Part shown: positions 19,145 to 37,145 of the stretch, one piece after another
Numbering within the stretch: position 1 is the stretch's first letter
Layout of the letters: each line of letters starts with the position of its first letter
Assembly (NCBI GenBank): GCA_963717365.1
Contig: OY970327.1
Coordinates: 139,599-203,598 of the forward strand
DNA: 64,000 nucleotides
Direction: 5' to 3'
Origin: Candidatus Saccharimonadia bacterium
GTDB taxonomy: Bacteria > Patescibacteriota > Saccharimonadia > Saccharimonadales > 2-12-FULL-41-12
The notes under the pieces: model-generated
Database searches by the model: none
What the model was told of the DNA's origin: nothing
Seen by the model: only the letters and a program-made list of their open reading frames with translations
Position numbers and translations under genes: made by a program

Positions 19145-19171
19145 AAAATAAATATAGTCTATAAAATACTA

Positions 19172-19201
19172 TTGACTAAATAGTACTAATTATGATATAA
19201 T
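19172..19201 (+). promoter_or_regulatory. Sigma70-like promoter facing block C
   Basis: TTGACT, 18-nt spacer, TATAAT, ending 4 nt before the GC-rich DNA starts. Confidence 0.45.
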
Positions 19202-19241
19202 CTTGCCGTGCACCACTGTCCAACAAACAAGGGAGAAGCAC

Positions 19242-19771: not shown

Positions 19772-19848
19772 ATCGGAGGTAAGAAAAGTAAAATTTGTTG
19801 TCCTAAATTGACTCCCAACACATTTTTTACAATTCTTACCTCCACATA

Positions 19849-19899
19849 TGCCTTCATGAATGTGTATTCATGCTGATGAGTCCTAAAGGACGAAAGGCA
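19849..19899 (+). ncRNA. Type III hammerhead ribozyme HHR3
   Basis: UGCC-UU|CAUGAAU-GUGU-AUUCAUG-CUGAUGA-GUCC-UAAA-GGAC-GAA-A-GGCA. Predicted cleavage after 19854. Confidence 0.85.
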
Positions 19900-20011
19900 A
19901 TGTAAAAACTTTTTAAAACATGCTACTACATCAAATTGATTTAATCCGCTCATGCTTGCAATCTATACAAGCCAGGTGTTAAATATTCTTTTAAAAGGGA
20001 CAGCTACACGT

Positions 20012-21133: not shown

Positions 21134-21382
21134 TTCGTTAAAATATTTCAAGAATTTTTACAATAATAATTACTTTCACATAAGCATTTTACCCTTGTTA
21201 ACCTATATTTTATTAGCATATAAACATTTCATGTAATTATGTAGCTTTAACAACAAAAAACTGTTAAAATTTTATTAGCTCTCAGAAGCTAGAGGTGAGA
21301 CCTAGTTAACTCCTTGGTTTGTAATTCCTTGAGTGGAAGTATCTGAGTGCACATTAACACTCTAGTCGATTGGAGATCGACG

Positions 21383-22417
21383 ATGATGGCTAACGCCAAC
21401 ATTCCGCAGTTCCCGGTGAACGTGTTCACCCAGCGTGGCGAAACGGTCTACTCGCTCGTCATGAGCGCAAGCGACCTGGCGAAGTACGCCCGAGTCGAGC
21501 GGTACGAAGACACGTCTGACGGCGTCAATCGCAAGCTTGACGAGCGGCACGCCATGAGGATCGCCGAGTACATGCTCGAGCCCAAGGCTGTCATGTTGGA
21601 CGCCATCTGCGGCGACCTGCGTGGCGACTGGCAGATCATCAACAACATGCTGGTCGGCGACGAGGACTCCTACCTGTCGATCGACGATGGCCAGCACCGG
21701 TGGTGGGCAGTAACCAACCTGTTGGTCCCGGAAGAGCGTTCGCGGTGGTCATTCCCGACCGTTGCGACGATGGGTCTCGACTACGAGACTCGCATGGCCA
21801 TCTTCCTGCAGCAGTCGCAGCGGAAGTCGGTCGACAGCAAGCTCAGCCTGGCCATGAAGCACGAACTGGGTCGCTGGAACAACGATGCCGAGCGCGAGTC
21901 CTACACCCTCCTGCTGGCGCTGAACTCCGAGACTGGCTCGCCCCTCCAGGGCAAGATCATCCTCGGAGAGACGCTCCGGCGTTCCTACGAGTCCAGGTAC
22001 CGTCCCGAGGGCATTAACGCCAACGGACTGTGGAACACGCTTCGGTCCGTCATGGGCTCGAAGTCGCCACTGGCGCAGCTGTCCATGGAGAAGCGGATCG
22101 AAGTCGTCCGCAACATCATCTGGGTGGCAAAGGAGACGTGGCCAAAGGACTGGGAGTCTGACCACAGCATCCTGACGACAGCACGGGGGATCAACTCGAT
22201 CATCACGATGATCAGACGGAGGCCGTCGGAGTTCCAGGTCGCCATCAACAACGACTTCAGCATCGACAACCTGCGTCGCGTGTTCCGCTACGCCAAGTCG
22301 TTCAAGTGGCACGCCAACGAGCACAAGAACGCCAGCGACAAGACCATCACCGAGGCGCTCGACAAGGCCATCGGTGCCGGTATGAGGCGTGACAGAAGCG
22401 TTCAGCTCGTCGCGTAA
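21383..22417 (+). CDS. DGQHR-domain (DndB-like, ParB/Srx-fold) protein, block D
   Basis: Literal DGQHRWWA motif. ggaga RBS before ATGATG. Confidence 0.7.
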   Translation: MMANANIPQFPVNVFTQRGETVYSLVMSASDLAKYARVERYEDTSDGVNRKLDERHAMRIAEYMLEPKAVMLDAICGDLRGDWQIINNMLVGDEDSYLSIDDGQHRWWAVTNLLVPEERSRWSFPTVATMGLDYETRMAIFLQQSQRKSVDSKLSLAMKHELGRWNNDAERESYTLLLALNSETGSPLQGKIILGETLRRSYESRYRPEGINANGLWNTLRSVMGSKSPLAQLSMEKRIEVVRNIIWVAKETWPKDWESDHSILTTARGINSIITMIRRRPSEFQVAINNDFSIDNLRRVFRYAKSFKWHANEHKNASDKTITEALDKAIGAGMRRDRSVQLVA

Positions 22418-22495
22418 TCCCAAACGCACTAGTACGGCACCTTCCTTCACGGATGAAGTAAGGTGTCTGTACTAGGGCATGAAAGAGGTAACTCT

Positions 22496-23800
22496 ATGGA
22501 GGAAACCAACGGAAAGGTGATGGCACGAAACTGGTTCTACCAGGATTACCTGCCATCCATCTTGAGCCCGCGGTCGCTTCGCGCGAGTAACTACCTCGTT
22601 CTACTTGGGGAAGACTTTCGCGAACTGCCGCTCTTTGAAGAGCTGGAGGTCCCACTGTACCGGATTTTCTCGGTAGAGAATGACCAAAAGATCTTCGCTC
22701 GTCAGCGTGCTCACGCTCGCCGCGAGGAACTGGATGTAGTCCTGCATCACGGTGCGCTCTCTGAGTACATCCAGGACTACCTCATGACCGACCACCGGAT
22801 CTCGGTGTTCAACCTAGATATCTGTGGCTCATACTTGAAGGGGATTGACCCAGTTCTTGGGAAACTCCTGCTGTTTGCCCGGCGCAATCCGAGCACAATT
22901 ATGGCCACCTACTCGAGCGCCGCCCGAGATCGTCCGCAGCTCATGGAAGGGCTGAAATCACTCGTGGTACTTCTCTGGCTTGCTCCGGAGGTGATCGACC
23001 GCTTGGTACGGCATCTGTACAGCCAGTATCGGACGGCGTCACTTTCGGATAGAGAACGGAGCAGGGACGAAGTCAGCGTCAATATGCTGCTTCGGCACCT
23101 GTTCTGGATGAGAAGTCACATGGAACACATCCTTGTCGGATCGTATACGTTGGGCATGACGTCCTACGAAACGCTCTGCCGGGTGATGACAGACCAGAAT
23201 AAGGTCTGGGAGGAGTTCCTGGCGGACGCCACATTCCCGTTGACGTACGAAGCGGTTGTGGAATGGATCCTGAGAAAGAAAGAACCCGATCTCAGGAAGG
23301 TCAGGATGGATGTCTCCTTCGGGGACGTGCAATTCCTGACCTATGCCGCCAATAGCGGTTTCTACCAGAACTGCTACTTCGCCACCTACGAGCATGACGG
23401 GTCAACCCTGTCGCTCAGTAACTGGCTGGTCGAATCGGCCAAGAACCTCCGTACCAACCGCATTGTCATCGTTGACACTAACGGTGAGCAGTACCCGACG
23501 ACCTTTGGTCGGATTGCGGTTGACACCGACAAAGCGGTGCTCTGGAGCAAGAATGATCTGACATCCGACCTACGTAATGTGGCAATTCCGCCTTCCTCCG
23601 TTCAGGAGCGCGTGGCAGATGAGTCACAAAACGGAGTGTCGAATGACATCATGGAGCTGACACCCGAAACGATCGAGCAGATTCATAAGCTCGCCCGTCT
23701 TGGACTGAACTCCAGGGAAATTAGCGAGAAACTCTCGCTGAAGCTTCCGATGCCACGGATCACTGCCCAGGTCGCTCTGGCCCGGAGAAAATCTCCATAG
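22496..23800 (+). CDS. Hypothetical partner protein with C-terminal HTH, block D
   Basis: About 434 aa. C-terminus IEQIHKLARLGLNSREISEKLSL resembles an HTH. The start could instead be 22463. Confidence 0.55.
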   Translation: MEETNGKVMARNWFYQDYLPSILSPRSLRASNYLVLLGEDFRELPLFEELEVPLYRIFSVENDQKIFARQRAHARREELDVVLHHGALSEYIQDYLMTDHRISVFNLDICGSYLKGIDPVLGKLLLFARRNPSTIMATYSSAARDRPQLMEGLKSLVVLLWLAPEVIDRLVRHLYSQYRTASLSDRERSRDEVSVNMLLRHLFWMRSHMEHILVGSYTLGMTSYETLCRVMTDQNKVWEEFLADATFPLTYEAVVEWILRKKEPDLRKVRMDVSFGDVQFLTYAANSGFYQNCYFATYEHDGSTLSLSNWLVESAKNLRTNRIVIVDTNGEQYPTTFGRIAVDTDKAVLWSKNDLTSDLRNVAIPPSSVQERVADESQNGVSNDIMELTPETIEQIHKLARLGLNSREISEKLSLKLPMPRITAQVALARRKSP

Positions 23801-23930
23801 ACAGGAGGTGTTAAGAAAACCCGCTACCCGTAACGGAAGCAACAAGGCACAAAGGGGCAAATGAGGACATGCCTACAACCTCCCGGGTGGAACAAGTTGA
23901 GCTATACGCTCCTTTTCCATCCGGTCCCTC

Positions 23931-23983
23931 GAATTTCGTAAAGTGTGTACTTTACCTGATGAGTCCAAAAGGACGAAAAATTC
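23931..23983 (+). ncRNA. Type III hammerhead ribozyme HHR4
   Basis: GAAUU-UC|GUAAAGU-GUGU-ACUUUAC-CUGAUGA-GUCC-AAAA-GGAC-GAA-A-AAUUC. Predicted cleavage after 23937. Confidence 0.85.
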
Positions 23984-24023
23984 CGCCCCAAGAAGCTTTT
24001 ACTATTACATCTATACTATACTA

Positions 24024-24052
24024 TTGACAATATAACTAAAATTTGCTATAAT
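24024..24052 (+). promoter_or_regulatory. Consensus sigma70 promoter
   Basis: TTGACA, 17-nt spacer, TATAAT, 40 nt after HHR4. Confidence 0.55.
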
Positions 24053-24159
24053 TATCAAATAAATCGCTCATGTTTATAGCGGGGCCTTTTAATGCAAGTT
24101 ATAATACATAGCGAAGGTATATATGAAATATAAATCCTTCAACAGAGTAAAACACCTAA

Positions 24160-26961
24160 ATGAATTTTGATCGTACCATTATGACCAACAGGGGTAAACC
24201 AGAACCAACCAATCGTGACGAAGAAATGGTGGTTCTTTTGTTGCAAGTCCCTCGTACGAACGACAAGAAAGAGCTGGCAGCCGAACAAATGTTTGCGTCG
24301 CTCCACGGCCTGTTAATGTTTCCGCCGCAAAAAAGATTCCAGGGTGCTAAGCGGGTACGTATTAGTTTTGAAATTGCCGTGCTACAAAAACGAATCGGCT
24401 TTTATGTTTGCGTTCCACAGTATCTTAAAGGCTTTGTAGAAGAGCAAATTTATGCGCAGTATCCAACCGTTCAAATTTCTGAAGTTATAGACTACTCTGT
24501 ACCAAACCAAGCCCACCAAAGCCGAACGCTTATGTCCGAGATGCGCCTGTCTAATAACGACGCTCTCCCAATAAAAACCTTCCAGAGTTTTGAAGTTGAC
24601 CCGCTTGCAGCCATCACTGCCACCTTGGCAAAATTTGAAGCCGGCGAAGAAGCCTGGATTCAATTAGTAATCCAGCCAGCTTCGAAGAACTGGCATAAAA
24701 AAAGCGAACGCTACATTGGTGGCTTACGCGAATCATCCGGCGGTACATCTTCCAAGGGACTTATTGCTGCACTATGGGCTCCACCGGAATACACTGCTTC
24801 TGGTTCAACAGCTGCAAAGCTAACCGAATATGAACAGTCACGAGCTAAAGGCGCCGAAGATAAAAGCCATAAACTATCGTTTGAAGCATCACTACGAATT
24901 GTCTATAAAGGTAACGTATCTCCGGATGAAGCTCGGTTGCGTCTTCAATCAATTGCGGCCAGCTTTAAGCAGTTCAATACCACTTATTTGAACGGTTTTG
25001 AACAAGGACGAATTAGCGAAGACTCAGCGGCATTATTACAGTATCAGGAACGCAAGTTAAACAAACGTCCTAACATCCTTAATATTGAAGAAATTGCTAC
25101 CTTATATCACTTACCCCACACTACCGTGGAAACCCCGTATATCTTATGGGCCTTGAGCCAGACGGCTGAGCCGCCGGCCAACCTGCCAATAGTGACAGAA
25201 AGCAATAAGGCCGACATTAGCCCTATTGCAGTTGCTAATTTCCGCGGCCATAACACCGCTTTTGGCATGCCGCGGTCTGATAGGGGACGTCACTTGTATA
25301 TCCTTGGACAGACCGGTGTTGGTAAGTCGGGTATGTTGGAACTACTGACTATTGCCGATATCGATAGTCCGTACGGCTTTGCCGTTATTGACCCTCACGG
25401 CGACTACGCTATTAATATTTTAAAACGCATTCCAGCGTCTCGTGCTAAAGATGTAATTTATTTCAACCCGTCTGATATGGACTTTCCAATTGCCTTTAAC
25501 CCAATGGAAGTATCAGATCCCAAGTTGCGCACTCACACCGTATCTGAGCTGATTGGCGTTTTAAAGCGTATGTTTGAGTCATGGGGACCACGCCTAGAAT
25601 ACATCCTGCGTTATAGTCTCTTGGCACTGCTCGAATATCCAAATGCTACTATGCTGGACATCACTAAGATCCTAACTGATAAAAACTTCCGCAAAGAAGT
25701 CCTAACTTACGTAAAAGATCCCGTAGTATATAACTTCTGGACGGTAGAGTTTGCCTCATGGAATGATAAGTTTGCCGCTGAAGCAGTTGCGCCAGTTTTG
25801 AATAAAGTCGGTGCCTTTACGGCCAACCCGATTATCCGCAATATTATCGGTCAGCCAAAAAGTAGCTTTAATATCCGTCAAATTATGGATGAACGCAAAA
25901 TCTTGATTGTAAACTTAAGCAGAGGACTGATTGGCGAAGACAATGCAGGACTACTGGGAGCACTACTTGTTACCAAGATCCAACTAGCAGCCATGAGCCG
26001 AGCCGATATCCCGGTAGAGGAACGTACCCCGTTCTACTTATATGTGGACGAATTTCAACATTTTGCTACCGACAGCTTTGCCACTATTTTGAGCGAGGCC
26101 CGAAAATACGGTCTTAACTTAACCGTGGCAAACCAATATATTGCCCAGATGTCCCAAGAAGTTAAAGATGCCGTCTTTGGCAACGTCGGCTCGATGATTG
26201 CCTTCCGTATGGGCGCCGATGATGCCCGCGGCATGCTGAAATACTTCGAACCAAAATTCCTGGAATACGACCTAGTACACATGCACAACCGCCACTTTGT
26301 TATTAATATGACCATTAATGGTGAAAAAACCCAAGCGTTCTCAGCCTTGAGTATTGACCTGCCCGACCGGCAGTTTGATGAAACGCTTACTATTATTGAT
26401 CATTCTCGCTCACAATACGCCCTGCATCGTGGTTCAGTAGAAGATCATATTGGCGGCCGCTATCTGCTTGAAAATAAACCTGCACCTGCCAAAATTACCG
26501 CGCAAGCTGGCACACCTGCGCCTAAGTCGGCGGCAACACGTAAAACGGTCGCCGCACAAAGCGAAGTTGCGCGTAAACCGGAAAGTCCTCAATCCGCTGC
26601 GCCGAAACTCGCCGAAACAAGTAAACCTCAAAAATCGTTAACAAACACCATCACCCTCAAAATGAAAGGCGCTGTTGCCAGTATGGGTCATGCCGCCTTA
26701 ATGAAGCCGACCGCCCTAAAACCTGCTATTAAGCCCAATCCCGTGATTGACGTTGTATCGGCTGAAACGGCAGTTGCAGAAGTTGCCGCCAAGCCGACCG
26801 ACATTGTTAAGCCGGAAATTCCAGTTCAAAAAGCAGCAACTCAACCCATCTCTGACGCCGAGCCAGCTCCTGAGAAAAAAAAGCGCAAACGAACCAGGCG
26901 AAAGAAAAAGAACTTTCAAAGTCTGGAAAATGACACTGAACATGTCATCTTCACAAGATAA
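24160..26961 (+). CDS. VirD4/TraD-like (type IV secretion coupling / DUF87-type) P-loop ATPase
   Basis: Walker A GQTGVGKSG, Walker B LYVDEFQHF, ARKYGLNLTVANQ. Low-complexity Ala/Pro/Lys tail. Confidence 0.6.
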   Translation: MNFDRTIMTNRGKPEPTNRDEEMVVLLLQVPRTNDKKELAAEQMFASLHGLLMFPPQKRFQGAKRVRISFEIAVLQKRIGFYVCVPQYLKGFVEEQIYAQYPTVQISEVIDYSVPNQAHQSRTLMSEMRLSNNDALPIKTFQSFEVDPLAAITATLAKFEAGEEAWIQLVIQPASKNWHKKSERYIGGLRESSGGTSSKGLIAALWAPPEYTASGSTAAKLTEYEQSRAKGAEDKSHKLSFEASLRIVYKGNVSPDEARLRLQSIAASFKQFNTTYLNGFEQGRISEDSAALLQYQERKLNKRPNILNIEEIATLYHLPHTTVETPYILWALSQTAEPPANLPIVTESNKADISPIAVANFRGHNTAFGMPRSDRGRHLYILGQTGVGKSGMLELLTIADIDSPYGFAVIDPHGDYAINILKRIPASRAKDVIYFNPSDMDFPIAFNPMEVSDPKLRTHTVSELIGVLKRMFESWGPRLEYILRYSLLALLEYPNATMLDITKILTDKNFRKEVLTYVKDPVVYNFWTVEFASWNDKFAAEAVAPVLNKVGAFTANPIIRNIIGQPKSSFNIRQIMDERKILIVNLSRGLIGEDNAGLLGALLVTKIQLAAMSRADIPVEERTPFYLYVDEFQHFATDSFATILSEARKYGLNLTVANQYIAQMSQEVKDAVFGNVGSMIAFRMGADDARGMLKYFEPKFLEYDLVHMHNRHFVINMTINGEKTQAFSALSIDLPDRQFDETLTIIDHSRSQYALHRGSVEDHIGGRYLLENKPAPAKITAQAGTPAPKSAATRKTVAAQSEVARKPESPQSAAPKLAETSKPQKSLTNTITLKMKGAVASMGHAALMKPTALKPAIKPNPVIDVVSAETAVAEVAAKPTDIVKPEIPVQKAATQPISDAEPAPEKKKRKRTRRKKKNFQSLENDTEHVIFTR

Positions 26962-27012: not shown

Positions 27013-28218
27013 ATGCTTAGTAAATACTTTGACCGCGACCGGCGACCAGAAATTAACCGCGAACTTGAGCCCTATACAAATATGGCGGCCGATGCTGAAG
27101 TTGAGCAGAGACTTGATGCTATGCAGCAGGATCTAGAGCTATCAAACCGTAATTTATTAACTTCAAACGACCGCTATCAAGCCAGTGCCTGTTATCTGTC
27201 ATTAGCTCGTAATAAACATATCTTGATGGCTACTATTGCTGGGCGCGTTACTACCGAAGACGGTAATAAAGAACTCCGCAGCGAACCCCACAAAAAACAA
27301 ACAATAATTCAGTTTATGACCCAAGGCTTTCAATCAAGCCGTGACAGCTTGGAATTTGTAGATGAAATAGAAGGGCAGCCCGGTTTTAAGTTTAATGACG
27401 GTCACATGCAGGGAATTAGGACGGTTGCTTCATTGCAGTGGCCACCTGCCGAACAGATGCCCAAACAGGCTATCATTGGCATCGCCGAGGCAGCCGATAT
27501 TATTACCGCTCACGTCGCCACTCAATTTGGTGAACTTACTAAATCAAACTCTGTGCCAAACGACTTTAGAATGGCACTCAGAAAGCAAGTAGACCCGCTG
27601 CTGGCGCAGGTTAATGCCAAAGCCAAAGCTATTGAACGATCAACTGGCGGTATGCTTGACCGGATTGATTCCGCCGCGATACTCAAAGGTATATATGATG
27701 ATGCAAAACAAGCAATTATAAAATTAGATGAAATTACCGTTTGGGCCACCGCTCCAAAACTATATGACCGCCGCTTTGAACTTAGAAATCCGCTTGATGA
27801 AGTGAACCCTAATAAAAAATCGTTTGACGCGTCAGCTCTTGGCGGCCCGGTAGTACGTCAGCATACGCATCTATACATTACACCTAACCCAGTACCGGCG
27901 GCCCCGCCAAAGCCCAAAGCCAGGCCATTTAATGCCGCTGCGCTGCAGGCTGCCACACCGCTAACACCGCCAATTGAAACACGGGTTACCCGGCCATTTA
28001 ATCCTAGCATTCTCTCCACTCCTCCAACACCAAAAGCGCCCGTTTCTCAAAAAACAGCCGGTAGGCAGTTCAGTCTTGATAGTTTAGCTCCCAAACCACC
28101 GAAAGCTTCGCCGCCAAAACCGGTAAGACGCGAATTTAGTAACGAAGACCTAGGTCCAGCACAGCCGCCAAAGCCTGCCAGAAAAACATTTGATCCTGAG
28201 CATCTGAACAAGAACTAA
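27013..28218 (+). CDS. Hypothetical protein with Pro-rich C-terminal repeats
   Basis: 401 aa. Repeated PPKP...[RK]xF motifs. Confidence 0.5.
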   Translation: MLSKYFDRDRRPEINRELEPYTNMAADAEVEQRLDAMQQDLELSNRNLLTSNDRYQASACYLSLARNKHILMATIAGRVTTEDGNKELRSEPHKKQTIIQFMTQGFQSSRDSLEFVDEIEGQPGFKFNDGHMQGIRTVASLQWPPAEQMPKQAIIGIAEAADIITAHVATQFGELTKSNSVPNDFRMALRKQVDPLLAQVNAKAKAIERSTGGMLDRIDSAAILKGIYDDAKQAIIKLDEITVWATAPKLYDRRFELRNPLDEVNPNKKSFDASALGGPVVRQHTHLYITPNPVPAAPPKPKARPFNAAALQAATPLTPPIETRVTRPFNPSILSTPPTPKAPVSQKTAGRQFSLDSLAPKPPKASPPKPVRREFSNEDLGPAQPPKPARKTFDPEHLNKN

Positions 28219-28238: not shown

Positions 28239-28270
28239 AAATGACAGACTACATATGTCTGTCATTTTTA
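28239..28270 (+). terminator. Intrinsic terminator
   Basis: aatgacagac-tacatat-gtctgtcatt followed by ttt. Confidence 0.7.
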
Positions 28271-28282
28271 ATTATCAGGTTT

Positions 28283-28350
28283 TAAATTCGGGGGTTACTG
28301 GGGGATGACTTAATTTGGTGGCTGGATTGCCAGAAAAAAAGTCACCCCCC
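28283..28350 (-). repeat. Conserved hairpin element, copy 1 (3' of the vWA gene); left arm of an inverted pair
   Basis: Minus strand GGGGGGUGACUU...AAGUCAUCCCCC-AGUAACCCCCGAAUUUA, which aligns with 30110-30181. Confidence 0.6.
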
Positions 28351-28402: not shown

Positions 28403-29224
28403 TTAGGCGGCGATGAGACCCTTCTGCTTGGCCGCCGCGAGATACGTTGGTACCTCGTCGAGCATGGCCTCGTAGAAGGCATTGTCCGACGTGCCGCCGA
28501 GCGATGCGAGCTGCTTGGCATCGACGTTGTCGATCAGGCGTCCGCCCTTGTCGTAGTCGACTCCGACCGGAATGTCGTCGTCGAGCGACTCCAGGTAGGC
28601 CCAGCCGCCGCGGTCGTTGCCGACGAAGATGAACTTCAGGAAGACCGCTCGGTAGCTGAGACGACGGATGACGTCGGTGGCTGCGTTCCGATCGTTGGGA
28701 GAGCCATCGGTGACGATGGTCACGAACGCCGGCGTCTGCATCGGTTTGATGGAGGGCTTGGGAGCTCCGCCACCGCGCTTCATGAAGCCACCGCCGCCGT
28801 TGGCGAAGAGGTCGCCGTTGCCGGTGATCTCCGCGACATGCTTCAGGGCGAGGGCCAGATCGGTCGAGCCGCGGGCGGTGATGCCGCTGCGCTTGACGTA
28901 CTGGTGGAAGTCGGTCAGCTTGACCAGCTTCTCCTCGATCTGATGGTCGAAGAAGATCGTTGGTACCTCGCCGTCGTCATCGACGATGACGGAGAAACCG
29001 AGCGTCCGGTCGACCGCGTCCTGTACGCTGCCGTCGCGGTACTCGTGGCTCATGGAGCCCGAGCGGTCGACGACGAGGATGCACTGCCACGCCTGGTTCG
29101 GGTTGACCTTGTTGGTCAGCATCACCTGGATGGCTGCGTTGACCTTCTTGGTCATCAAACCGCCGGTGTTCTGCTGGGCGTCAGCCGCGGCTGCCTTCTC
29201 TTTGATCGTCTTCATGTTGGCCAT
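28403..29224 (-). CDS. vWA-domain protein, TerY-like, block E
   Basis: MIDAS motif VVDRSGSMS. gaggag RBS before the ATG at 29224. Confidence 0.7.
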   Translation of the reverse strand: MANMKTIKEKAAAADAQQNTGGLMTKKVNAAIQVMLTNKVNPNQAWQCILVVDRSGSMSHEYRDGSVQDAVDRTLGFSVIVDDDGEVPTIFFDHQIEEKLVKLTDFHQYVKRSGITARGSTDLALALKHVAEITGNGDLFANGGGGFMKRGGGAPKPSIKPMQTPAFVTIVTDGSPNDRNAATDVIRRLSYRAVFLKFIFVGNDRGGWAYLESLDDDIPVGVDYDKGGRLIDNVDAKQLASLGGTSDNAFYEAMLDEVPTYLAAAKQKGLIAA

Positions 29225-29414
29225 GTGAATGGCTCCTCTCGACTTGGGAAACAGGTACAATTGTATGGATATTACCAACAACAATCTGTAAAATAACATA
29301 AACTAAGATAAATTACAATAATGTGTGAAAATGCTTGTAAAATATATAAAATAGTGTAAAATACCATTTGTATTCAGCATCCCGCTGCTTACAAAACAAA
29401 GGGGACAGATCTAC

Positions 29415-30041
29415 ATGTCACTCCAGACGAAGAAGATCCCGCTCGCCCAGGGCGACACCAAGGCACTCCCGACCAACAAGGGTCAGGTCTTCACCGCCGG
29501 TGTCGGCTGGGATCCCGCCGCGGGCCAGGACACGGTCGACCTCGACCTCTGGCTGATCCGGACGCAGAGCGACGGCAACGTCGAGTGCGCCTTCTGGGGC
29601 AACCAGAAGTGGCAGCGTCCCGATCTGGGCACCAACGGCTCCGGCAGCCCCTACATCGCGTCCCCCGAGGGAGACGTGGTCCACAAGGGCGACGACCTGA
29701 CCGGTGCCGAGTCGGACACGGGTTACGACGAGACCATCGCCCTCGACCTGTCGAAGGCGCCGGCCACCGTGACTCAGTACGCGCTGTTCGCCACGATCTA
29801 CAGCGACGCGAACGACAAGACGCTCGGCATGGCCACCAACGTCATCTGCGGCGTCAAGGAGGAGAACTCGGGCAACGAGTACACCACCGAGCTCGCCGAC
29901 GATCACGGCTTCGACCTCTCGGTCCTCATCTGCACCATCGACAACGTCGACGGCAAGTGGAAGATGACCAACAAGGACGAGGGCTACGACGACCCGATGC
30001 CGGAGATCGCCAAGAAGCTGGGCGTGGTCGGCTTCCCGTAG
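29415..30041 (+). CDS. terD: TerD-domain stress protein, block E
   Basis: GVGWD, DLDLWL, HKGDDLTGAESDTGYDETIALDL, GKWKM...GYDD. Collinear with the TerD family pattern. Confidence 0.8.
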   Translation: MSLQTKKIPLAQGDTKALPTNKGQVFTAGVGWDPAAGQDTVDLDLWLIRTQSDGNVECAFWGNQKWQRPDLGTNGSGSPYIASPEGDVVHKGDDLTGAESDTGYDETIALDLSKAPATVTQYALFATIYSDANDKTLGMATNVICGVKEENSGNEYTTELADDHGFDLSVLICTIDNVDGKWKMTNKDEGYDDPMPEIAKKLGVVGFP

Positions 30042-30109
30042 GGACGCAAGCGCTTCAGGTCTCCTGAAGAACTGCGGCGCCCTCGGTAGCTGACAAGTTC
30101 TGTCTCCTA

Positions 30110-30181
30110 GGGGGATGACTTATTTTTTTGGCCTTTCAGCCACCAATCTAAGTCATCCCCCGCTACCACCCCACGAATTTA
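30110..30181 (+). repeat. Conserved hairpin element, copy 2 (3' of terD); right arm of the inverted pair
   Basis: GGGGGAUGACUUA-(26 nt containing UGGC-N6-GCCA)-UAAGUCAUCCCCC-GCUACCACCCCACGAAUUUA. Confidence 0.6.
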
Positions 30182-30401
30182 TTCATTAATATTGATAATA
30201 TTACAAAAATACGGTACAATATCTCATGTGTGCCGTATTTTTTATGTGCACGTACCTTAACAGTGTGAGTAATAAACTACGTTTGTTGAGGAGGGTAAGC
30301 ACTTGCTATTGAGTAATATCAACTGCTTACCCTTTCCAAACTAGACAAATCTTTCTCTGACTTTCCATCTGAAGCAACGACCCAAAAGGAGCGCAGTTCC
30401 T

Positions 30402-31481
30402 GTGAGAAGCACCCTTTGGAAGTACTACAAGTACGACGTGCTGTTTGCCCTCGTGGTCACGATCGCGATCGGCTGGCAGTATGGCCTCCTGGCTGTACTC
30501 ACGTTGGGACTCGTTTCCGCCTTGGAGATCACTCTCTCTGGTGACAACGCGGTCGTCAACGCCCGAGTACTGGCCAAGATGAGCCCGTTCTGGCAGAAGA
30601 TGTTCATCACCATCGGCTACCTCATCGCCGTCGTTGGCATGCGGTTCGTCTTCCCAATCCTGATCGTGTCGCTGACCGCCGGACTTGGCTTCACCGAAGT
30701 CATCAACCTGGCATTCACCGACGTCGACACGTACGGAGACAAGCTGCATGACGCGCACGGCGAGATCGCCATGCTCGGCGGCATCTTCCTGTTGCTGGTC
30801 TTCCTGAACTACATGTTCGAAGAGAAGGAGACCACGTGGCTGGGACCGCTTGAGCGTCTGCTCGCACGCGGCGGCAAGCACGACAGTCTGTCGTACTTGA
30901 TCGCTGCGGTAGCGATTCTGGTGCTCAGCGCAACGCTCGGTGCAGACAAGCAGTATCCCGTGATGTTCGCTGGTTTCATCAGCTTGGCCGCCTTCATGGC
31001 AGTCAACATCTTCGCCGCGGCTTTCGAGCCAGAAGACGACGACGATGACATCGAGACGGTCAAGAGCAAGGTCGTTCAGAGGACGGGCATGGCGGCTTTC
31101 GGGCTGTTCATGTACCTGGAGTTTCAGGATGCTTCGTTCTCGTTCGACGGCGTGTCTGGCGCGTTCGCCATCACCGACAACATCGTCCTGATCACCGCTG
31201 GCCTGGCCATCGGCGCTCTGGCGGTTCGCTCGATGACGCTGCACCTGCTGCACACCAACAAGCTGGCCGAGTTCAAGTACCTCGAGCACGGCGCGCACTG
31301 GGCCATCGGCTCACTCGCCGTTTGTCAGCTGCTGACGATCCATTACCCGATCCCCGAGCCCCTCACCGGACTCATCGGCATCGTGTTCATCGGTCTCGCC
31401 ATCTGGTGGAGCAAGCGGGAAGAGAAGAAGGAAGCAGCCGAGCTGGCAGCAACTCCCGACCTGATGGTCGAGAAGGACTAG
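30402..31481 (+). CDS. DUF475 / TerC-like integral membrane protein, block F
   Basis: LEITLSGDNAVVNA and LEFQDASFSFDGVSGAFAIT paired motifs, multi-TM. Confidence 0.7.
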   Translation: MRSTLWKYYKYDVLFALVVTIAIGWQYGLLAVLTLGLVSALEITLSGDNAVVNARVLAKMSPFWQKMFITIGYLIAVVGMRFVFPILIVSLTAGLGFTEVINLAFTDVDTYGDKLHDAHGEIAMLGGIFLLLVFLNYMFEEKETTWLGPLERLLARGGKHDSLSYLIAAVAILVLSATLGADKQYPVMFAGFISLAAFMAVNIFAAAFEPEDDDDDIETVKSKVVQRTGMAAFGLFMYLEFQDASFSFDGVSGAFAITDNIVLITAGLAIGALAVRSMTLHLLHTNKLAEFKYLEHGAHWAIGSLAVCQLLTIHYPIPEPLTGLIGIVFIGLAIWWSKREEKKEAAELAATPDLMVEKD

Positions 31482-31508
31482 CCAGCCGCGGCTGACGAAA
31501 AGTGATGA

Positions 31509-31547
31509 GGGTGTGGTCTCTAATGCTCCGCAAAGGAGACCACACCC
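31509..31547 (+). terminator. GC-rich hairpin terminator
   Basis: gggtgtggtctc-(15 nt)-gagaccacaccc, flanked by gaaaag/cttttc. Confidence 0.5.
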
Positions 31548-31610
31548 CGCGCTTTTCGCCTTCTCAATTTTACTCACACTGTTATCTACCACCTTATTAC
31601 AACTAGTATC

Positions 31611-31652
31611 TAAACAAAAAAGAAGCCGTGCTGTATAGCCCGGCTTCTTTTT
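31611..31652. terminator. Bidirectional intrinsic terminator
   Basis: aaaaaa-agaagccg-(12 nt)-cggcttct-tttt. Confidence 0.6.
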
Positions 31653-31665
31653 AAGTCTGAGTATT

Positions 31666-31941
31666 TTACTCTTCTGTGTGTGGTTGGGGAACATCCGCAA
31701 CTAAGTACAATGTCTGTCTTCCTAGTTGATGAGTACCTCCGCCCATACTGTTTGTGCCCAGATTATTAATCTCTACTAGTGCGTGACTGCCAACTATTTT
31801 ACCGTCCTTGGCTGCTGCGTCTTCATAAGCTGCCTTAATATCAGCAGCTACATCTTCCGTGCTGCGTTCATCTATAGAATCATTTTCATCCCACTCTGCG
31901 AATAAGTGGGGACTCTTAATAACGTGTACTTCAAATGGCAT
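31666..31941 (-). CDS. Hypothetical small protein
   Basis: aggag RBS before the ATG at 31941. Confidence 0.4.
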   Translation of the reverse strand: MPFEVHVIKSPHLFAEWDENDSIDERSTEDVAADIKAAYEDAAAKDGKIVGSHALVEINNLGTNSMGGGTHQLGRQTLYLVADVPQPHTEE

Positions 31942-32130
31942 AGTAAATAAACTCCTAAAATTATGACTATAATTATAGCACATTGATATGATAGTGTCAA
32001 TATCAATATCATTATCGTCTAGGTTAGTCAAGCAGAAAAAACACGTAATAACTACTTGTATAGGAAAGAATATAATTTAGAAAACTATAATTGACAAATA
32101 TACAATACAATAATATAATGTAAGTTGATT

Positions 32131-32856
32131 ATGACTGAAAAATTAGTATCACCTCCAGAAGTGATGTTACGTTCACCCGACGTAGCAACGGTGAGTTTTG
32201 ACCTATGGCTGACCTTATTATCGTATCCTGATACAACTTTTCGGGATTGTCGTAATAAATTAGTGCAAGATATACTTGCGCCTGAGATGTCACCTGAAGA
32301 ATTTACCGCCACACTGCATACCCAAGATAAAATAGCCGATAATCTTGCTGAAGACCGAGAGTCAGACGTAACGTTTAACGAGCGCATCAATCGACTAGCC
32401 GCCGCGCTTGGAAAACCAGAACCAACACACGAAGAGCTAATATACTTATATTCTGAACAGGGTAAATTACTTGAAGAACATCCGCCGGTGCTGATTGAGC
32501 CGGAATTGCCGGATTATTTGGATGAGCTGGGTGAGAATCATGGTTTGGCTGTAATTAGCAACACGGGATTCTTACATGGTGACCAGATGAGAAAAGCACT
32601 TGGACAACTAGGTATTAGGGATATGTTTTCTGCTATTATCTTCTCTAATGAAGTTGGAAAGGCAAAACCGCATCCAGCAATTTTCCAAGAACTTACTAGC
32701 CTGAGTAACCAATCTCCTGAAAAAATTGTCCATATTGGCGATAATCGTAAAGCCGATTACCAAGGCGCCTTAGCGGCTGGCATGTCGGCAATACATATTC
32801 CTAGGCGCAGCGGAGTAATTACTGTTTTAAGGGAAACATTGCAACAGGAACACTAA
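32131..32856 (+). CDS. HAD-superfamily hydrolase-like protein
   Basis: VSFDLWLTLL (variant motif I), VISNTG, K...IGDNRKAD. Confidence 0.6.
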   Translation: MTEKLVSPPEVMLRSPDVATVSFDLWLTLLSYPDTTFRDCRNKLVQDILAPEMSPEEFTATLHTQDKIADNLAEDRESDVTFNERINRLAAALGKPEPTHEELIYLYSEQGKLLEEHPPVLIEPELPDYLDELGENHGLAVISNTGFLHGDQMRKALGQLGIRDMFSAIIFSNEVGKAKPHPAIFQELTSLSNQSPEKIVHIGDNRKADYQGALAAGMSAIHIPRRSGVITVLRETLQQEH

Positions 32857-32858
32857 TC

Positions 32859-33722
32859 ATGGATATTTATAAAGTTTCAACACATACCATAATCCCGCAA
32901 GAGGACGGTAGTCTTAGGCTGGAAAATGGCGATCCGTTTGATGCCGAAGCCTACAGTCTCATGAAATATGGCGATAGTCGGAGCGCCCAAATATATGGCA
33001 GTGAGCTCGGGCAAACTTTAATCGATGAAGTGACTGATTCGGTGAGCGGTGACCGCGCCGTATTTACTGTCCCTGCATTTACGTATGCTCCTAAACCAGC
33101 TCTAGCAATTGCCAGAGCAGCCTTAACTCATGTGAATGAATATCGTACCAGTAAGGGTCTAGAACCAGCCAGAATGATGCGTATGCATACCGATCAAATG
33201 GGAACTACAGCTTATGCACAGTCAAGTCTTGAAATGCGCGAAGCAGAAGTTAAGAAATGGCCTACCCAGCACCATATCCCCGCAAGTCTGGTAGAAGATG
33301 CCATTGTCTTTGCGGTTGACGACTGCGTTATTACAGGAGCAACAGAAAAAAAGCTTATTAACAGATTGTCCGCCTATAATCCTGGAACTATTGTGTGTGC
33401 ATATGCGCTCAAAGTCGACCCGGAAAAAGCACTCGAATTTCCGGGAATCGAGCATGTTTTAAATGTGGCTGCCAAGCCTGATCTTGGAACAGTGCTGGAG
33501 CTTATTAATGAGCGTCACTTTACCCTAAACTCACGCGTGCTTGACATGATTCTTGACACTGAGGATATAGATGAACTTAATACGTTTCTTAGAGATTGCC
33601 CGCAAGATATTAGAGCTGATATGTACGAAGCAACGATAAATAGCAGTCTTGAATTTATCGGACGATACCCTGACGCCATAGCCCTCCTCTCGCGGTATGT
33701 GTATGCAGCTGTAACAAACTAA
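32859..33722 (+). CDS. Phosphoribosyltransferase-like protein
   Basis: PRPP-loop-like AIVFAVDDCVITGAT. Confidence 0.5.
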   Translation: MDIYKVSTHTIIPQEDGSLRLENGDPFDAEAYSLMKYGDSRSAQIYGSELGQTLIDEVTDSVSGDRAVFTVPAFTYAPKPALAIARAALTHVNEYRTSKGLEPARMMRMHTDQMGTTAYAQSSLEMREAEVKKWPTQHHIPASLVEDAIVFAVDDCVITGATEKKLINRLSAYNPGTIVCAYALKVDPEKALEFPGIEHVLNVAAKPDLGTVLELINERHFTLNSRVLDMILDTEDIDELNTFLRDCPQDIRADMYEATINSSLEFIGRYPDAIALLSRYVYAAVTN

Positions 33723-33770
33723 CTATCCCAGTCTCATAACAAAAGGAGAGGCCAAGCTAGAGGTCAGTAT

Positions 33771-34754
33771 TTATAATACGGCCCTATCAAGTACTAAGTG
33801 AGTGGGTGCCAATTTTTCGGCAACTTGTTGGATGCGCCTTTGTCTGACTGATTGCTGCAAAGCGGTAAAGTTTTCAAAATATTCAGGTCGGGTATGATGG
33901 CCATCGCTAACTACACCGGCTAAGATAGCTCGTGCGTTAGCATAAGGGACGTTAGCAACGAATTCATGGATTTGCTCAGGAGTATGAGCTGCGTCCATGA
34001 TAAAACGACAGATACGGGCATTAACTTCAAAATCAGACCGTTTGGCAATGATTTCTAGTTCACTAAGGCCCGTAACATATACTTGGTTTAAATCTGACTC
34101 AATCTTTGGATAGCGGGCTGCCAGTTCCGGGTCAATTACCGCAGCGTAACAAAATACCATGCGTCCGACACCGGCGTCTGTGAGCGCTGCTGCAAATGAT
34201 CGCTCGTTGCTACCGGTGTTTCTAACGTCATCAAAGACAATAACCGTTTTATTTGCCACATCTTTGGCGTATACCGTCGGAACATGAACGTTATTATCTT
34301 CAATGTACGTTTTTCGGTCCGCTTCGGACATCGTGCTGTAATCGCCGCTTTTTATAACTGAGCGATCTATTCTAACTAGCCCCTTTGGTGGAAAGCCAGC
34401 TGATGCAAGCTCGCCTACCATCCGTCTGGTTACATAATACGCAGCAGTAGGAACGTGTTTGTAGGCAGAAGAGGTAATGTAGTAATCATCTAAAATATCT
34501 TCACCTTCACTTTCAAGGATGTTATCTCTCTCCACTAAAAGCTTGTCGGTTACCGAAAGAGCCATATCGTTAGCCGCTTCGCCACAACCGTATTTATATA
34601 AGCTGTAAGCATGGCCGTCAAAGGGTTGGCCTGACTCAAGATCCATTACCCGTTCATTAATAATTGCTAATTTAGCTACCGTGATTTCGCTATGTCTGGA
34701 ATTTTGGGCTGTACGTTCATACATAAAATTTATCCTTGTAATTTGGTGAAACAC
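33771..34754 (-). CDS. Phosphoribosyltransferase-like protein
   Basis: PRPP-loop-like TVIVFDDVRNTGSN. Confidence 0.55.
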   Translation of the reverse strand: MFHQITRINFMYERTAQNSRHSEITVAKLAIINERVMDLESGQPFDGHAYSLYKYGCGEAANDMALSVTDKLLVERDNILESEGEDILDDYYITSSAYKHVPTAAYYVTRRMVGELASAGFPPKGLVRIDRSVIKSGDYSTMSEADRKTYIEDNNVHVPTVYAKDVANKTVIVFDDVRNTGSNERSFAAALTDAGVGRMVFCYAAVIDPELAARYPKIESDLNQVYVTGLSELEIIAKRSDFEVNARICRFIMDAAHTPEQIHEFVANVPYANARAILAGVVSDGHHTRPEYFENFTALQQSVRQRRIQQVAEKLAPTHLVLDRAVL

Positions 34755-34813
34755 GAGTTTTTTTAATCAGGAGGGCCTGAAAGGAGAAAAACTCGCAAAA
34801 ACCTAATTCTGCC

Positions 34814-35488
34814 TTACTTCTTCGCCCTCAGGGTGAACTCATGCCAGTGCACGGAGTCGCCTTCGACGCCGGCGGTGTTCGTGACGCACTGGGCGTAGTC
34901 GATCACCTGGAAGCCGGCGGCTCGGAACAGTCGTTCGATGTCGGCGCGCTGCCAGAACACGAACAAACGTGTGCTCTCCATGCCGAGTGACCGCTTGTCC
35001 CACATGAGGCGGGAGCAGAAGGGGTTGTTCTCGGGATGGTGAGCGACCGTGCAGAACGCATGGGCGTCCGGCTCGAGCACCCGGTGGGTCTCGGTCATGA
35101 CGGCAGGCAGATGCTGGCGCTCGATGTGCTGAAGCACGTTGAGGGCAAGCCAGCCGCCGAAGCTCTCGTCTGCGAAGTCGAGGGCGTCTGCAGTCATGTT
35201 CAGGATCTCGAGACTGGGGTCTCGTTCCTGCGCGAGTTCCACGAAGTGGCTGCTGATGTCGGTGCCGACGTACGAGAAACCACGAGTGTGGAGCAGGTCA
35301 GCCGGATAGGCCTCGCCGCAGCCGATCTCGAGCACGCGTGCGCCAGGCGACAGGTACCTCATGAAACGCTTGACCCAGGGGTCCCAGTACCCAGGGGGGC
35401 GCTTCCAGTCCGTGTTGTTGTAGTACTCCACGGTCTGTGCTTCGTCTGCGGACAGCTGTGTGCCTACCGCTGGCGGAAGTATTGTCAT
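34814..35488 (-). CDS. Class I SAM-dependent methyltransferase, block G
   Basis: Motif I VLEIGCGEAY. gaggagagag RBS. Confidence 0.7.
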   Translation of the reverse strand: MTILPPAVGTQLSADEAQTVEYYNNTDWKRPPGYWDPWVKRFMRYLSPGARVLEIGCGEAYPADLLHTRGFSYVGTDISSHFVELAQERDPSLEILNMTADALDFADESFGGWLALNVLQHIERQHLPAVMTETHRVLEPDAHAFCTVAHHPENNPFCSRLMWDKRSLGMESTRLFVFWQRADIERLFRAAGFQVIDYAQCVTNTAGVEGDSVHWHEFTLRAKK

Positions 35489-35582: not shown

Positions 35583-35635
35583 TTCACTTTCGTCCTTTTG
35601 GACTCATCAGCATAAATACGCATTTATGGAGTGAA
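35583..35635 (-). ncRNA. Type III hammerhead ribozyme HHR5
   Basis: Minus strand UUCAC-UC|CAUAAAU-GCGU-AUUUAUG-CUGAUGA-GUCC-AAAA-GGAC-GAA-A-GUGAA. Confidence 0.85.
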
Positions 35636-35983: not shown

Positions 35984-36691
35984 TTACCGCTCCTTACCAA
36001 CCGTGTATGACTGCATGGCCTTGATGATCTCCATGTAGGTGATGAGCGACATGTCGACTTCGTCAGCACTGCGAGGTGCCGGCGGATTGTCATCCGTGTC
36101 GTCATCCATCCACGCGTCGATGAACAGGTACATCAGGAACGGGTTGTTGCCCGGTCCGTAGAACCCGAAGTACTGGGGCCCGTAGGGATCCCGGTACAGG
36201 TACGTCGTTCCGCCGTGGCGGTACGAGCCCTTGCTCATCTTCCGGTAGTCCCGGTTGTAGTTCGCACCGCGAGGCACGTACTTCGGTCGGGTCTTCGGGT
36301 TGTTGTATCGCGCGATCTTTACCGGTGAGGCCTTGGGCACGAGCTTCGTGATTGGGGCCTTCAACGACGTGGGACCGCTGGTTGAGGTAGGAGTCCTGCT
36401 GGCACTCCGCGAGGGCGTGCTGGGACTGTTGCTCTTGCCGGAGCCACTGCTCTTGGTCGCGCTGCTGGGTGGGGTGCTGCTCTTGCCACCGAAACTGGCC
36501 GGCGGGGGAGTGACCTTCGTCGGATTCGAAGCCGGCGGCGGTGGGGGAGTGACTCTCACCGGCGGTGGCGGTGGCGGCGGACTGATCCTGACCGGCGGTG
36601 GCGGTGGCGGGCTGAACGCACCGAAGCTGACACCAGGGAATGCCACCAGTACTGCGATGAGCGACACTGCGAATGCACTACCGTGTCTCAT
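35984..36691 (-). CDS. Secreted proline-rich protein, block H
   Basis: Signal-peptide-like N-terminus, PPPPPPVRISPPPPPPPVRVTPPPPP repeats. gaggtg RBS overlaps the upstream stop. Confidence 0.55.
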   Translation of the reverse strand: MRHGSAFAVSLIAVLVAFPGVSFGAFSPPPPPPVRISPPPPPPPVRVTPPPPPASNPTKVTPPPASFGGKSSTPPSSATKSSGSGKSNSPSTPSRSASRTPTSTSGPTSLKAPITKLVPKASPVKIARYNNPKTRPKYVPRGANYNRDYRKMSKGSYRHGGTTYLYRDPYGPQYFGFYGPGNNPFLMYLFIDAWMDDDTDDNPPAPRSADEVDMSLITYMEIIKAMQSYTVGKER

Positions 36692-36701
36692 GTGTGTCAC
36701 C

Positions 36702-37145
36702 TCAGTACGCGTTGATGTTCCTGATGTGGCCGGCGATGGTCGTCTGGAGAGACTTGGTCGCGCGGGCGTAACCCTCGGGATCATCTCCGGGCGACTTCTG
36801 AACGAGGTCGGCGTAGTTCTTGATCGCCTGGCTCAGCTGCGCGGCCTCCGTCTCGAGCTCGGGCTCCGGCGCCTTGAGGGCGTCGATGTTCCGTGCTGTC
36901 TGGCGGAGGTTGTTGGCCACGGCCTGCATCGTCGAGACGTCTTCGCTGGACGAGGACGAGTCATTGGTGAGGGGGGCGAGCTTGGCGAGCTGAAGGCCGA
37001 ACTTGGCGTTCTGCTGGTTGATCTGCACCTTGAAGGTTCGCACCGGGTCGACGGCCGAGGCCACGTCCCTGACGGTGTCGCCACAGGCCGCGAGGCTTGC
37101 GGTGAGGGTGAAGATCAAAGCGGTGATGATGGTTCGACGGATCAT
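36702..37145 (-). CDS. Lipoprotein, block H
   Basis: Lipobox LTASLAAC, aggaga RBS. Confidence 0.6.
   Translation of the reverse strand: MIRRTIITALIFTLTASLAACGDTVRDVASAVDPVRTFKVQINQQNAKFGLQLAKLAPLTNDSSSSSEDVSTMQAVANNLRQTARNIDALKAPEPELETEAAQLSQAIKNYADLVQKSPGDDPEGYARATKSLQTTIAGHIRNINAY

Follow-up and report, generated by a model that had tools for sequence, protein, structure and literature searches.

A Ter-type stress-response cluster of a Saccharimonadia bacterium with a gene-by-gene split in synonymous GC content

The cluster and its place among Ter systems

We have analysed 64,000 nt of DNA of Candidatus Saccharimonadia bacterium (the whole of this stretch is hereafter called the window), part of an NCBI contig of 1.19 Mb. 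The window contains a cluster of genes of the Ter stress-response type, the members of which differ sharply in G+C content at the third codon position (GC3). All seven open reading frames (ORFs) named in a preliminary description of this DNA are present where it had placed them. Together with a partner gene and a small ORF they are:

27013-28218, plus strand: X401, partner gene of unassigned function; GC3 0.40, i.e. background class
28403-29224, minus strand: TerF-like vWA protein (PF10138, 111 bits, 9e-32) with the metal ion-dependent adhesion site motif DRSGS; GC3 0.87
29415-30041, plus strand: TerD (PF02342, 64 bits, cut-off 25); GC3 0.94
30402-31481, plus strand: DUF475 membrane protein (PF04332, 344 bits, 9e-103); GC3 0.83
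31666-31941, minus strand: small ORF of 91 aa, function unassigned; low GC3
32131-32856 (alternative start 32125), plus strand: HAD_2/Hydrolase; GC3 0.35
32859-33722, plus strand: PRTase_3 (a) (PF15610, 92 bits), phosphoribosyl pyrophosphate (PRPP) loop VDDCVITGAT; GC3 0.38
33771-34754, minus strand: PRTase_3 (b) (PF15610, 85 bits), loop FDDVRNTGSN; GC3 0.38
34814-35488, minus strand: class I S-adenosylmethionine (SAM) methyltransferase (Methyltransf_23/11/25); GC3 0.82

In the Pfam search every assignment of the seven ORFs scores above its curated cut-off. This supports the earlier identification of TerD, DUF475/TerC, HAD, two PRTase and SAM methyltransferase genes, and of a Ter-type neighbourhood with a Ter-specific PRTase_3/HAD arm. 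The vWA protein had been described as TerY-like, and this has to be corrected to the TerF type. The absence of ATP-grasp and TIM-barrel lyase genes was also described correctly; using the proteins of relatives as tblastn queries, no homologue of ATP-grasp, C-C lyase, TelA or X205 (a gene found in relatives, see below) was detected anywhere in the 64 kb. For TelA the query was the protein of a relative, and TerB was not searched separately.

The TerC profile (PF03741) also matches the DUF475 protein, with 59 bits. PRTase_3 is the ComF-like PRTase family associated with Ter systems; (b) is a paralogue of (a) with 28% identity, and the PRPP loops are intact in both translations. TerD belongs to a small, Saccharimonadales-specific clade within which the acidic columns of the Ca-site type are invariant. 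TerD domains bind Ca, and TerC-family proteins are metal exporters, e.g. of Mn. The X401 family has no match in Pfam and no sequence match in the PDB. TerD, DUF475 and PRTase have their closest relatives on contigs that carry the label Candidatus Saccharimonadales or Saccharimonadia, or are of that type. The locus is best explained as a native Saccharimonadales version, in the candidate phyla radiation (CPR, Patescibacteria), of the Ter stress-response system, having two arms. The first comprises X401, the TerF-type vWA protein, the Ca-site-bearing TerD and the TerC-family DUF475 protein, and the second is a reduced metabolite arm.

Ter-dependent stress response systems with a module for a nucleoside-like metabolite were reportedly described by Anantharaman, Iyer and Aravind in 2012 (Mol Biosyst 8:3142). 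As in those systems, TerD, DUF475/TerC and a TerF-type vWA protein lie beside Ter-specific PRTase_3 and HAD genes in the window, and related loci add ATPgrasp_Ter, C-C_Bond_Lyase and TelA. The window differs in being without ATP-grasp, lyase, TelA, TRSP and PELOTA, and in adding a SAM methyltransferase, a HAD protein with the motif I DxWxT and X401 as a constant partner. It also differs in its small, isolated TerD clade, and in a gene-specific GC3 regime that is undescribed for such systems. An actinobacterial Ter locus from Allostreptomyces psammosilenae (L018; the labels L001-L020, P0045 and P0107 denote the comparison loci that were fetched) served as a control. It has the order TerD, TerD, DUF475, then C-C lyase and PRTase genes, with GC3 of 0.94-0.96 in its Ter genes and a DUF475 protein 49% identical to that of the window. 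However, all of L018 is GC-rich, and its PRTase is a PRTase_2-TRSP-StiP-PELOTA fusion rather than PRTase_3.

Synonymous composition and transcript signals

The composition split claimed in the preliminary description is confirmed, with GC3 of 0.82-0.94 in the vWA, TerD, DUF475 and methyltransferase genes and of 0.35-0.38 in HAD and both PRTases. For the genome as a whole the background is ~0.40, and the housekeeping genes at 42-64 kb of the window (LigA, LeuRS and others) have GC3 of 0.38-0.48. Per-gene composition is bimodal, and the split is real and far beyond chance. GC3-rich genes are confined to ~15.7-37.3 kb, where they alternate gene by gene with GC3-poor ones.

The GC content at first and second codon positions (GC1 and GC2) is ~0.58 and ~0.40 in both classes, so that the excess is limited to third (synonymous) positions. 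The balance of Lys and Arg is native, with 14 Lys and 2 Arg in TerD and 16 Lys and 8 Arg in DUF475. The intergenic spacers have GC contents of 0.33 (vWA/TerD) and 0.43 (TerD/DUF475), and of 0.32-0.58 in relatives. In the L018 control the spacers are 0.63-0.84 GC and GC1 is 0.63-0.79, with Lys/Arg numbers of 6/8 and 4/12 for the TerD proteins and 4/15 for DUF475.

The GC3-rich class uses AAG (0.96), CAG (1.00), ATC (0.96) and TTC (0.95), together with CTG+CTC (0.90) and GGC (0.70), and almost no GGG (0.01). The fractions of AAG, CAG and GAG are 0.87-1.00 in GC3-rich genes versus 0.28-0.47 in low-GC3 genes. The same set of GC-ending codons is found in six lineages. It differs from that of Actinobacteria by keeping GGT (0.17-0.37) and CGT (0.09-0.26). 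A GC3 'ramp' at gene starts was inconsistent.

The cluster recurs in relatives, where the usual order is an unannotated gene of 334-401 aa, an opposite-strand vWA gene, TerD, often X205, DUF475, and then HAD and PRTase_3. This order is kept in L001, L005, L011 and L008. Homologues of X401 (blastp, 1e-50 or better) lie beside vWA in L001 (X334), L005 (X380), L011, L008 and L013. X205 is a second, very divergent TerD-like gene between TerD and DUF475, with GC3 of 0.85-0.95; it has left no trace in the window, where the 360-nt spacer 30042-30401 occupies its place.

The codon regime recurs with the genes. Over nine independent Saccharimonadales loci the excess above the local GC3 background is +0.17 to +0.54 for TerD, +0.19 to +0.47 for vWA and +0.16 to +0.47 for DUF475. 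TerD exceeds the other genes in six of the eight loci measured, and TelA and X205 also carry an excess of G/C-ending codons. Genes of the X401 family differ from local background by only -0.05 to +0.11, i.e. they are at background in every locus, although they sit between GC3-rich genes in several different gene orders. Of the seven loci with HAD and PRTases, five have these genes at background.

At four-fold degenerate sites of identical residues, orthologue pairs match only as frequently as composition predicts; for TerD of the window and L001, 35 matches were observed at 63 sites against 34.5 expected. The synonymous sites are therefore saturated. In L001 and L011 the island occupies the same chromosomal slot, with S2, EF-Ts and RRF on one side and L31, RF1 and PrmC on the other. 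Between these two loci housekeeping proteins are 54-91% identical, with vWA at 76%, TerD at 87%, X205 at 74% and X334 at 63%, and the housekeeping genes are likewise saturated at silent sites. The identities of the four island proteins fit vertical descent. GC3 in this pair is 0.88-0.98 for the Ter genes and 0.38-0.41 for X334.

The signals around the genes of the window are:

28239-28267: bidirectional terminator-like hairpin between X401 and vWA
28300-28350, minus strand: long hairpin 3' of vWA, homologous to that 3' of TerD
29335-29362, plus strand: TerD promoter TTGTAA-16-TAAAAT with TG before the -10, in the divergent spacer
30110-30161, plus strand: long hairpin 3' of TerD, partner of 28300-28350
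30192-30220, plus strand: promoter-like site of DUF475, TTGATA-17-TACAAT
30256-30270, plus strand: leader motif CTTAACAGTGTGAGT, left copy, a 15-mer upstream of DUF475
30291-30334, plus strand: long leader hairpin past the motif; sequence varies, architecture conserved in L005, L009 and L011
31509-31548: hairpin after DUF475, core GGTCTCC..TGCGGGAGCAT..GGAGACC conserved in L005, L009 and L011
31572-31586, minus strand: right, inverted copy of the motif, GATAACAGTGTGAGT, 3' of DUF475
32091-32119, plus strand: perfect consensus promoter TTGACA-17-TATAAT directly before HAD
35586-35632, minus strand: hammerhead type III-like motif, ~350 nt past the GC-rich gene 35984-36784(-) and ~100 nt upstream of the methyltransferase start

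The position of the TerD promoter is conserved in relatives as TTGCAC-N17-TGTATAAT, of the extended -10 type. The spacers are AT-rich and carry conserved sigma-70-type promoters, which argues against a patchwork of transferred DNA. The GC3-rich genes have structured transcript ends, i.e. 5' hairpins for TerD and DUF475 and homologous 3' hairpins for vWA and TerD. In the 5' untranslated region of TerD, upstream of 10001 in L001 and 10016 in L011, a hairpin shows compensatory changes (UGCGUAAC..GUUACGCA versus UGCGCGACC..GGUCACGCA), and an analogous hairpin lies at ~29368-29395 in the window. We note a 49-nt inverted repeat (28290-28338/30123-30171, 80% complementary) on either side of the divergent vWA-TerD pair, each arm being part of a long hairpin with a 13-bp stem directly past the stop codon.

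The 15-mer upstream of DUF475 also occurs upstream of DUF475 in L003, L005, L007, L009 and L011; its chance expectation in the window is 0.09. The left copy lies between a variable 5' hairpin and the long hairpin, and the hairpin at 31509-31548, read on the minus strand, comes after the right copy. DUF475 is thus bracketed by inverted copies of AACAGTGTGAGT, as 14-mers at 30257-30270(+) and 31585-31572(-). The inverted copy lies 65-91 nt past the DUF475 stop in five independent loci; in relatives the pair (12-15 nt conserved) is found at 8793/9964 in L003, 7309/8786 in L005, 1557/2892 in L009 and 11844/13192 in L011. The AACAGTGTGAGT pair may act as a pair of operators, in RNA-protein binding or in recombination, and the motif is a new conserved leader and flank element for the Ter system of CPR bacteria. 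Like the yybP-ykoY Mn riboswitch this is a conserved structured leader before a TerC-family gene, but here it is a single-stranded motif of 15 nt, with variable hairpins on either side, that is conserved and that is repeated in inverted form 3' of the gene. No Rfam match to yybP-ykoY was found in the DUF475 leader at the gathering threshold or at E<=1, and Rfam gave no riboswitch in the TerD leader, the DUF475 leader or the DUF475 trailer.

Five hammerhead type III-like motifs are present in the window, at 16931-16989(+), 17078-17031(-), 19847-19901(+), 23925-23983(+) and 35632-35586(-), and a sixth follows TelA in L003 (6681-6703(-)). All six have an intact CUGAUGA...GAAA core and an NUH cleavage site; stem II has 4-5 bp, stem I is closed and stem III open. 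Among the window copies pairwise identity is 64-92%; three score 34.3, 27.8 and 26.9 bits with Rfam RF00008 against a gathering score of 48.5, and two are unreported at E<=0.5. Each motif is found 90-350 nt past a GC3-rich gene, on that gene's strand. Five of nine GC3-rich transcription units are followed by a motif, against none of ~55 GC3-poor genes (Fisher p 1.7e-5). In prophage-like or mobile regions, clusters of hammerheads beside single genes have been described before (Perreault et al. 2011, PMC3088659). The window resembles these in having several type III-like copies within 19 kb, each by a single gene or short block. It differs in that the copies fall below the Rfam gathering score, have minimal stems and lie specifically downstream of GC3-rich genes, in a CPR host and with no integrase or phage genes nearby.

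Explanations of the split

We consider that the split is probably maintained by selection on the coding sequence or mRNA and not by transfer, with a probability of about 0.6. On this reading the split is a gene-family-specific excess of G/C-ending codons in TerD, vWA and DUF475, long held across Saccharimonadales. Selection is the best explanation because the bias is confined to silent sites, stops at the ends of genes, is codon-specific, skips an embedded neighbour and survives saturation; the regime has outlasted the time needed for synonymous saturation. X401 and the metabolite enzymes would stand outside the regime in most lineages, giving rise to the apparent split.

The purpose is most likely related to expression, in that the stress messages would be unusually stable or selectively translatable. 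The stress genes may be built as robust transcripts, with a hairpin at the 5' end, few A/U-ending codons in a GC-rich body, and a stable hairpin or self-cleaving ribozyme closing the 3' end, and might be read by a G34/C34 set of tRNAs. Such messages could be made, or persist, when bulk AT-rich messages cannot, e.g. on starvation or loss of the host. There are hints of a translational component. In an Akashi-type test pooled over loci, G/C-ending codons are slightly enriched at conserved residues (Mantel-Haenszel odds ratio 1.33, p 0.008), and TerD, as noted above, generally has the largest excess. Classical translational selection for high expression was rejected, as ribosomal-protein and EF-Ts genes lack the preferred codon set.

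A broader proposal is that epibiotic Saccharimonadia have a second 'codon dialect', GC-ending, as the mark of a stress and accessory regulon that is co-regulated post-transcriptionally, with hairpin- or ribozyme-bounded transcripts. Its messages would be selectively stable, or translatable by G34/C34 tRNAs, in cells that are starved or detached from their high-GC actinobacterial host, and the dialect would be kept gene by gene over deep time. This is tentative, and we think it has perhaps one chance in a few of being right.

Elf et al. (2003) reportedly described how tRNA isoacceptors are charged selectively in starvation, and the Dedon laboratory modification-tunable transcripts. As in such codon-biased stress translation, the stress genes of the window use codons that are rare in the bulk genome. 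However, the shift in the window affects every codon family, including C/T choices read by one tRNA, and is far more extreme than in reported cases. Selection for higher synonymous GC in bacteria is said to have been found by Hildebrand in 2010 and by Raghavan, Kelkar and Ochman in 2012. The synonymous GC content of the window genes is similarly well above the apparent mutational equilibrium, implying selection or biased fixation, but the known effects are genome-wide and modest, whereas here neighbours differ by 0.5 in GC3 according to gene family.

Several observations weigh against selection as the cause. The mechanism of the regime is something that we infer. The Akashi-type signal is weak (for the window alone the odds ratio is 1.53, p 0.23), and S2, EF-Ts, RRF and L31 have GC3 of only 0.40-0.50 in L001 and L011. 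HAD has a perfect promoter and yet a low GC3, so that promoter strength does not predict class. The metabolite arm is GC3-rich (0.71-0.83) in L001 and L011, and class membership is therefore not fixed for all families. Several of the other GC3-rich genes of the window are Arg-rich and may be true imports. Lastly, exchange of modules between lineages occurs, and horizontal movement within the group may be a contributor.

This last point leads to the alternative that survives best, namely a mobile pool of GC3-rich genes. TerD/vWA, DUF475, the methyltransferase and others would be cassettes that circulate in Saccharimonadales, or originate in a high-GC lineage or element not yet sampled, and repeatedly replace resident alleles, so that their composition would mirror where they mostly reside. 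We regard this as unlikely, while giving it appreciable weight. The modules do differ in their nearest relatives. The vWA and TerD proteins of the window are nearest to those of L014, L005, L011 and L001 (52-61%), as is X401 (32-36%), while DUF475 (61%) and PRTase_3 (a) (49%) are nearest to L003, the TerD and vWA of which are only ~30% identical to those of the window. Between L001 and L011 the DUF475 and HAD/PRTase genes have been replaced (32-36% identity). The 49-nt repeat around vWA-TerD and the inverted 14-mers around DUF475 in five loci would suit cassettes, as would near-identical hammerhead modules (86-92% identity) after GC-rich genes elsewhere in the window, clustered hammerheads being typical of prophage or mobile regions (PMC3088659). 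The region from 1 to 42 kb is accessory, and includes an IS1595 transposase.

To judge from these identities the cluster is a phylogenetic mosaic of modules, but the mosaic does not track GC class. Donor searches were word-indexed for TerD, PRTase and DUF475, with an exhaustive phmmer search for TerD over 1.84 billion representatives. No high-GC donor was found among 15 billion proteins, and the word-indexed searches gave no close high-GC homologue of TerD, PRTase or DUF475. The best TerD relatives are <=62% identical and on Saccharimonadales-type contigs; the exhaustive search gave only 21 representative clusters at E<=1e-10, with identity <=36% beyond the clade. Scans of genome contigs and metagenome contigs gave 3 and 7 loci, all Saccharimonadales-type. 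One possible donor indicated by the tree, the Arg-rich DUF475 of P0107, was rejected as it lies on a Saccharimonadales-like contig of 53% GC.

Assessed as an island from a high-GC donor, the locus has only its GC3 raised, with spacers of 0.33-0.43 GC and native Lys/Arg; its relatives are no more than 62% identical and Saccharimonadales-type; and, far from being patchy and without synteny, its gene order is conserved in L001, L005, L011 and L008. Within the supposed cassettes the spacers are AT-rich with conserved native promoters and the amino-acid composition is native. Genes of the low-GC3 X401 family lie among GC3-rich genes in several gene orders, and vWA, TerD and X205 have co-diverged with housekeeping genes at a fixed site in L001 and L011 while keeping GC3 at ~0.9. 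The preliminary description found the split hard to explain by a single transfer, and we agree that one transfer cannot account for it. Its implication that the two classes come from different donors or transfers is not supported, given an excess that is synonymous only, AT-rich spacers and proteins in Saccharimonadales-specific clades, with the same families GC3-rich, and X401 GC3-poor, in nine divergent genomes with saturated silent sites.

A different origin of the bias would be GC-biased gene conversion, or another recombination-linked mutational bias, at a recombination hot spot. The region is recombinogenic and modular, and Saccharibacteria-type bacteria are naturally competent. Yet the bias ends at start and stop codons, sparing the spacers, and also spares first and second codon positions, the Lys/Arg balance and X401 between affected genes. 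Moreover the preference is for particular codons (GGC and GGT rather than GGG; C rather than G), not for GC in itself. We consider this explanation improbable.

Actinobacteria are the usual hosts of Saccharibacteria, and an ancient acquisition of the Ter cluster from high-GC Actinobacteria, with some genes incompletely ameliorated, would account for a codon set that is broadly like actinobacterial usage. Actinobacteria have TerD-DUF475-lyase-PRTase clusters. The identity of DUF475 grades from ~60% within Saccharimonadales-type sequences to 44-50% for Actinobacteria, and in a neighbour-joining tree the window copy lies in a Saccharimonadales-rich clade beside an actinobacterial one. However, with synonymous sites saturated an inherited composition should be long lost, and neighbours of the same age would ameliorate equally, yet their GC3 differs by 0.5. 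TerD is <=36% identical outside its clade, and the spacers are AT-rich. An ancient actinobacterial origin of the genes themselves is possible, without explaining the present composition; as the source of that composition it is very improbable.

A chimera of two organisms made in assembly or binning can be dismissed as next to impossible: Logan contigs of ERR12037361 do break in the 3' part of DUF475 at ~31281-31308 (this may reflect strain variation or a graph branch), but the identical DNA was assembled independently in Logan contigs and the 1.19 Mb NCBI contig, single Logan contigs span genes of both classes (DndB-like, high; type IV coupling protein and X401, low; vWA and TerD, high), the ORFs are intact across the junctions, and assemblies of other genomes, from JGI, ENA, NCBI and Logan, show the pattern again.

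It is common practice to take atypical GC content as evidence of horizontal transfer, and here a gap of ~0.5 in GC3 separates adjacent genes of a conserved cluster. Such a split is hard to obtain without selection at silent sites because it is purely synonymous, tied to gene families and persists past saturation in many lineages. If selection is indeed responsible, this would be an unusually clean natural case of strong gene-specific selection at synonymous sites in a reduced genome, and would advise caution in calling horizontal gene transfer from composition in CPR genomes. It would also point to a regulatory layer, made of codon/GC content and RNA end structures, in organisms with poorly understood stress biology and host dependence. 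The literature on Saccharibacteria or Patescibacteria with TerD, tellurium, GC3 or hammerheads yielded nothing relevant, and the composition phenomenon appears to be undescribed.

The metabolite arm and other genes of the window

The metabolite arm varies between loci. It is complete in L001, as HAD, PRTase_3, C-C_Bond_Lyase, PRTase_3 and ATPgrasp_Ter; L005 and L008 have only HAD and two PRTases, matching the window, and L003 has three PRTases. ATPgrasp_Ter is present in L001 and L007, C-C_Bond_Lyase in L001, L009 and the P0045 locus, and TelA in L003, L005, L014 and L020. A 520-aa protein of L011 (13385-14947; also in L012) is a fusion of PRTase_3 with a SAM methyltransferase. The window methyltransferase aligns over its full length with the C-terminal half of this fusion, at 33% identity (E 3e-32), and because of this homology we assign it to the metabolite arm. 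In motif I of HAD (DxWxT) Trp replaces the second (general acid/base) Asp and is invariant in seven of seven orthologues; phosphatase chemistry is therefore not assured. HAD, the two PRTase_3 proteins and the methyltransferase would together make a small ribosylated or nucleoside-like compound, possibly methylated. The Ter system in CPR bacteria is refined by this reduced PRTase/HAD arm with a methyltransferase, and by the new constant partner family X401.

The HAD promoter leaves a near-leaderless transcript. It diverges from a second perfect consensus promoter, at 32000-31972(-), that serves the small ORF 31666-31941. We note that near-identical strong promoter modules recur in the window, at 24010-24055, 31969-32002(-), 32091-32119, 18404-18428 and 19158-19182.

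Other GC3-rich genes of the window (GC3 0.68-0.94) lie at 15808-16368, 16427-16768, 17261-18340(-), 19203-19700, 21347-22417, 22463-23800, 35984-36784(-) and 36702-37145(-). They include a K-channel-like protein, a Lys-rich small membrane protein, DUF6910/DUF6929, a His-rich Zn-ribbon protein, a DndB-like protein with a 445-aa partner of unassigned function, a Pro-rich protein and a lipoprotein-like ORF. No homologues of the K-channel-like, DUF6910, Zn-ribbon, DndB-like and 22463 genes were found in any of the fetched loci. PADLOC detected no defence system among the GC-rich genes, its sole match being a generic methyltransferase.

The stretch from 1 to 42 kb consists entirely of accessory genes, with APH, GNAT, CN hydrolase and methyltransferases among them, and the IS1595-family transposase at 10094-10948(-); housekeeping genes begin at ~42 kb. 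A gene at 24160-26961 resembling the coupling protein of type IV secretion systems (DUF8128 + DUF87 + TrwB) adjoins the Ter cluster both here and in the distant P0045 locus. In Saccharimonadales Ter clusters of a second type, a further family of small genes (~145 aa, no Pfam match) adjoins TelA or DUF475, at 8146-8592 in L003, 10872-11321 in L014 and 9349-9780 in L020, and is also present in L016 and L019.

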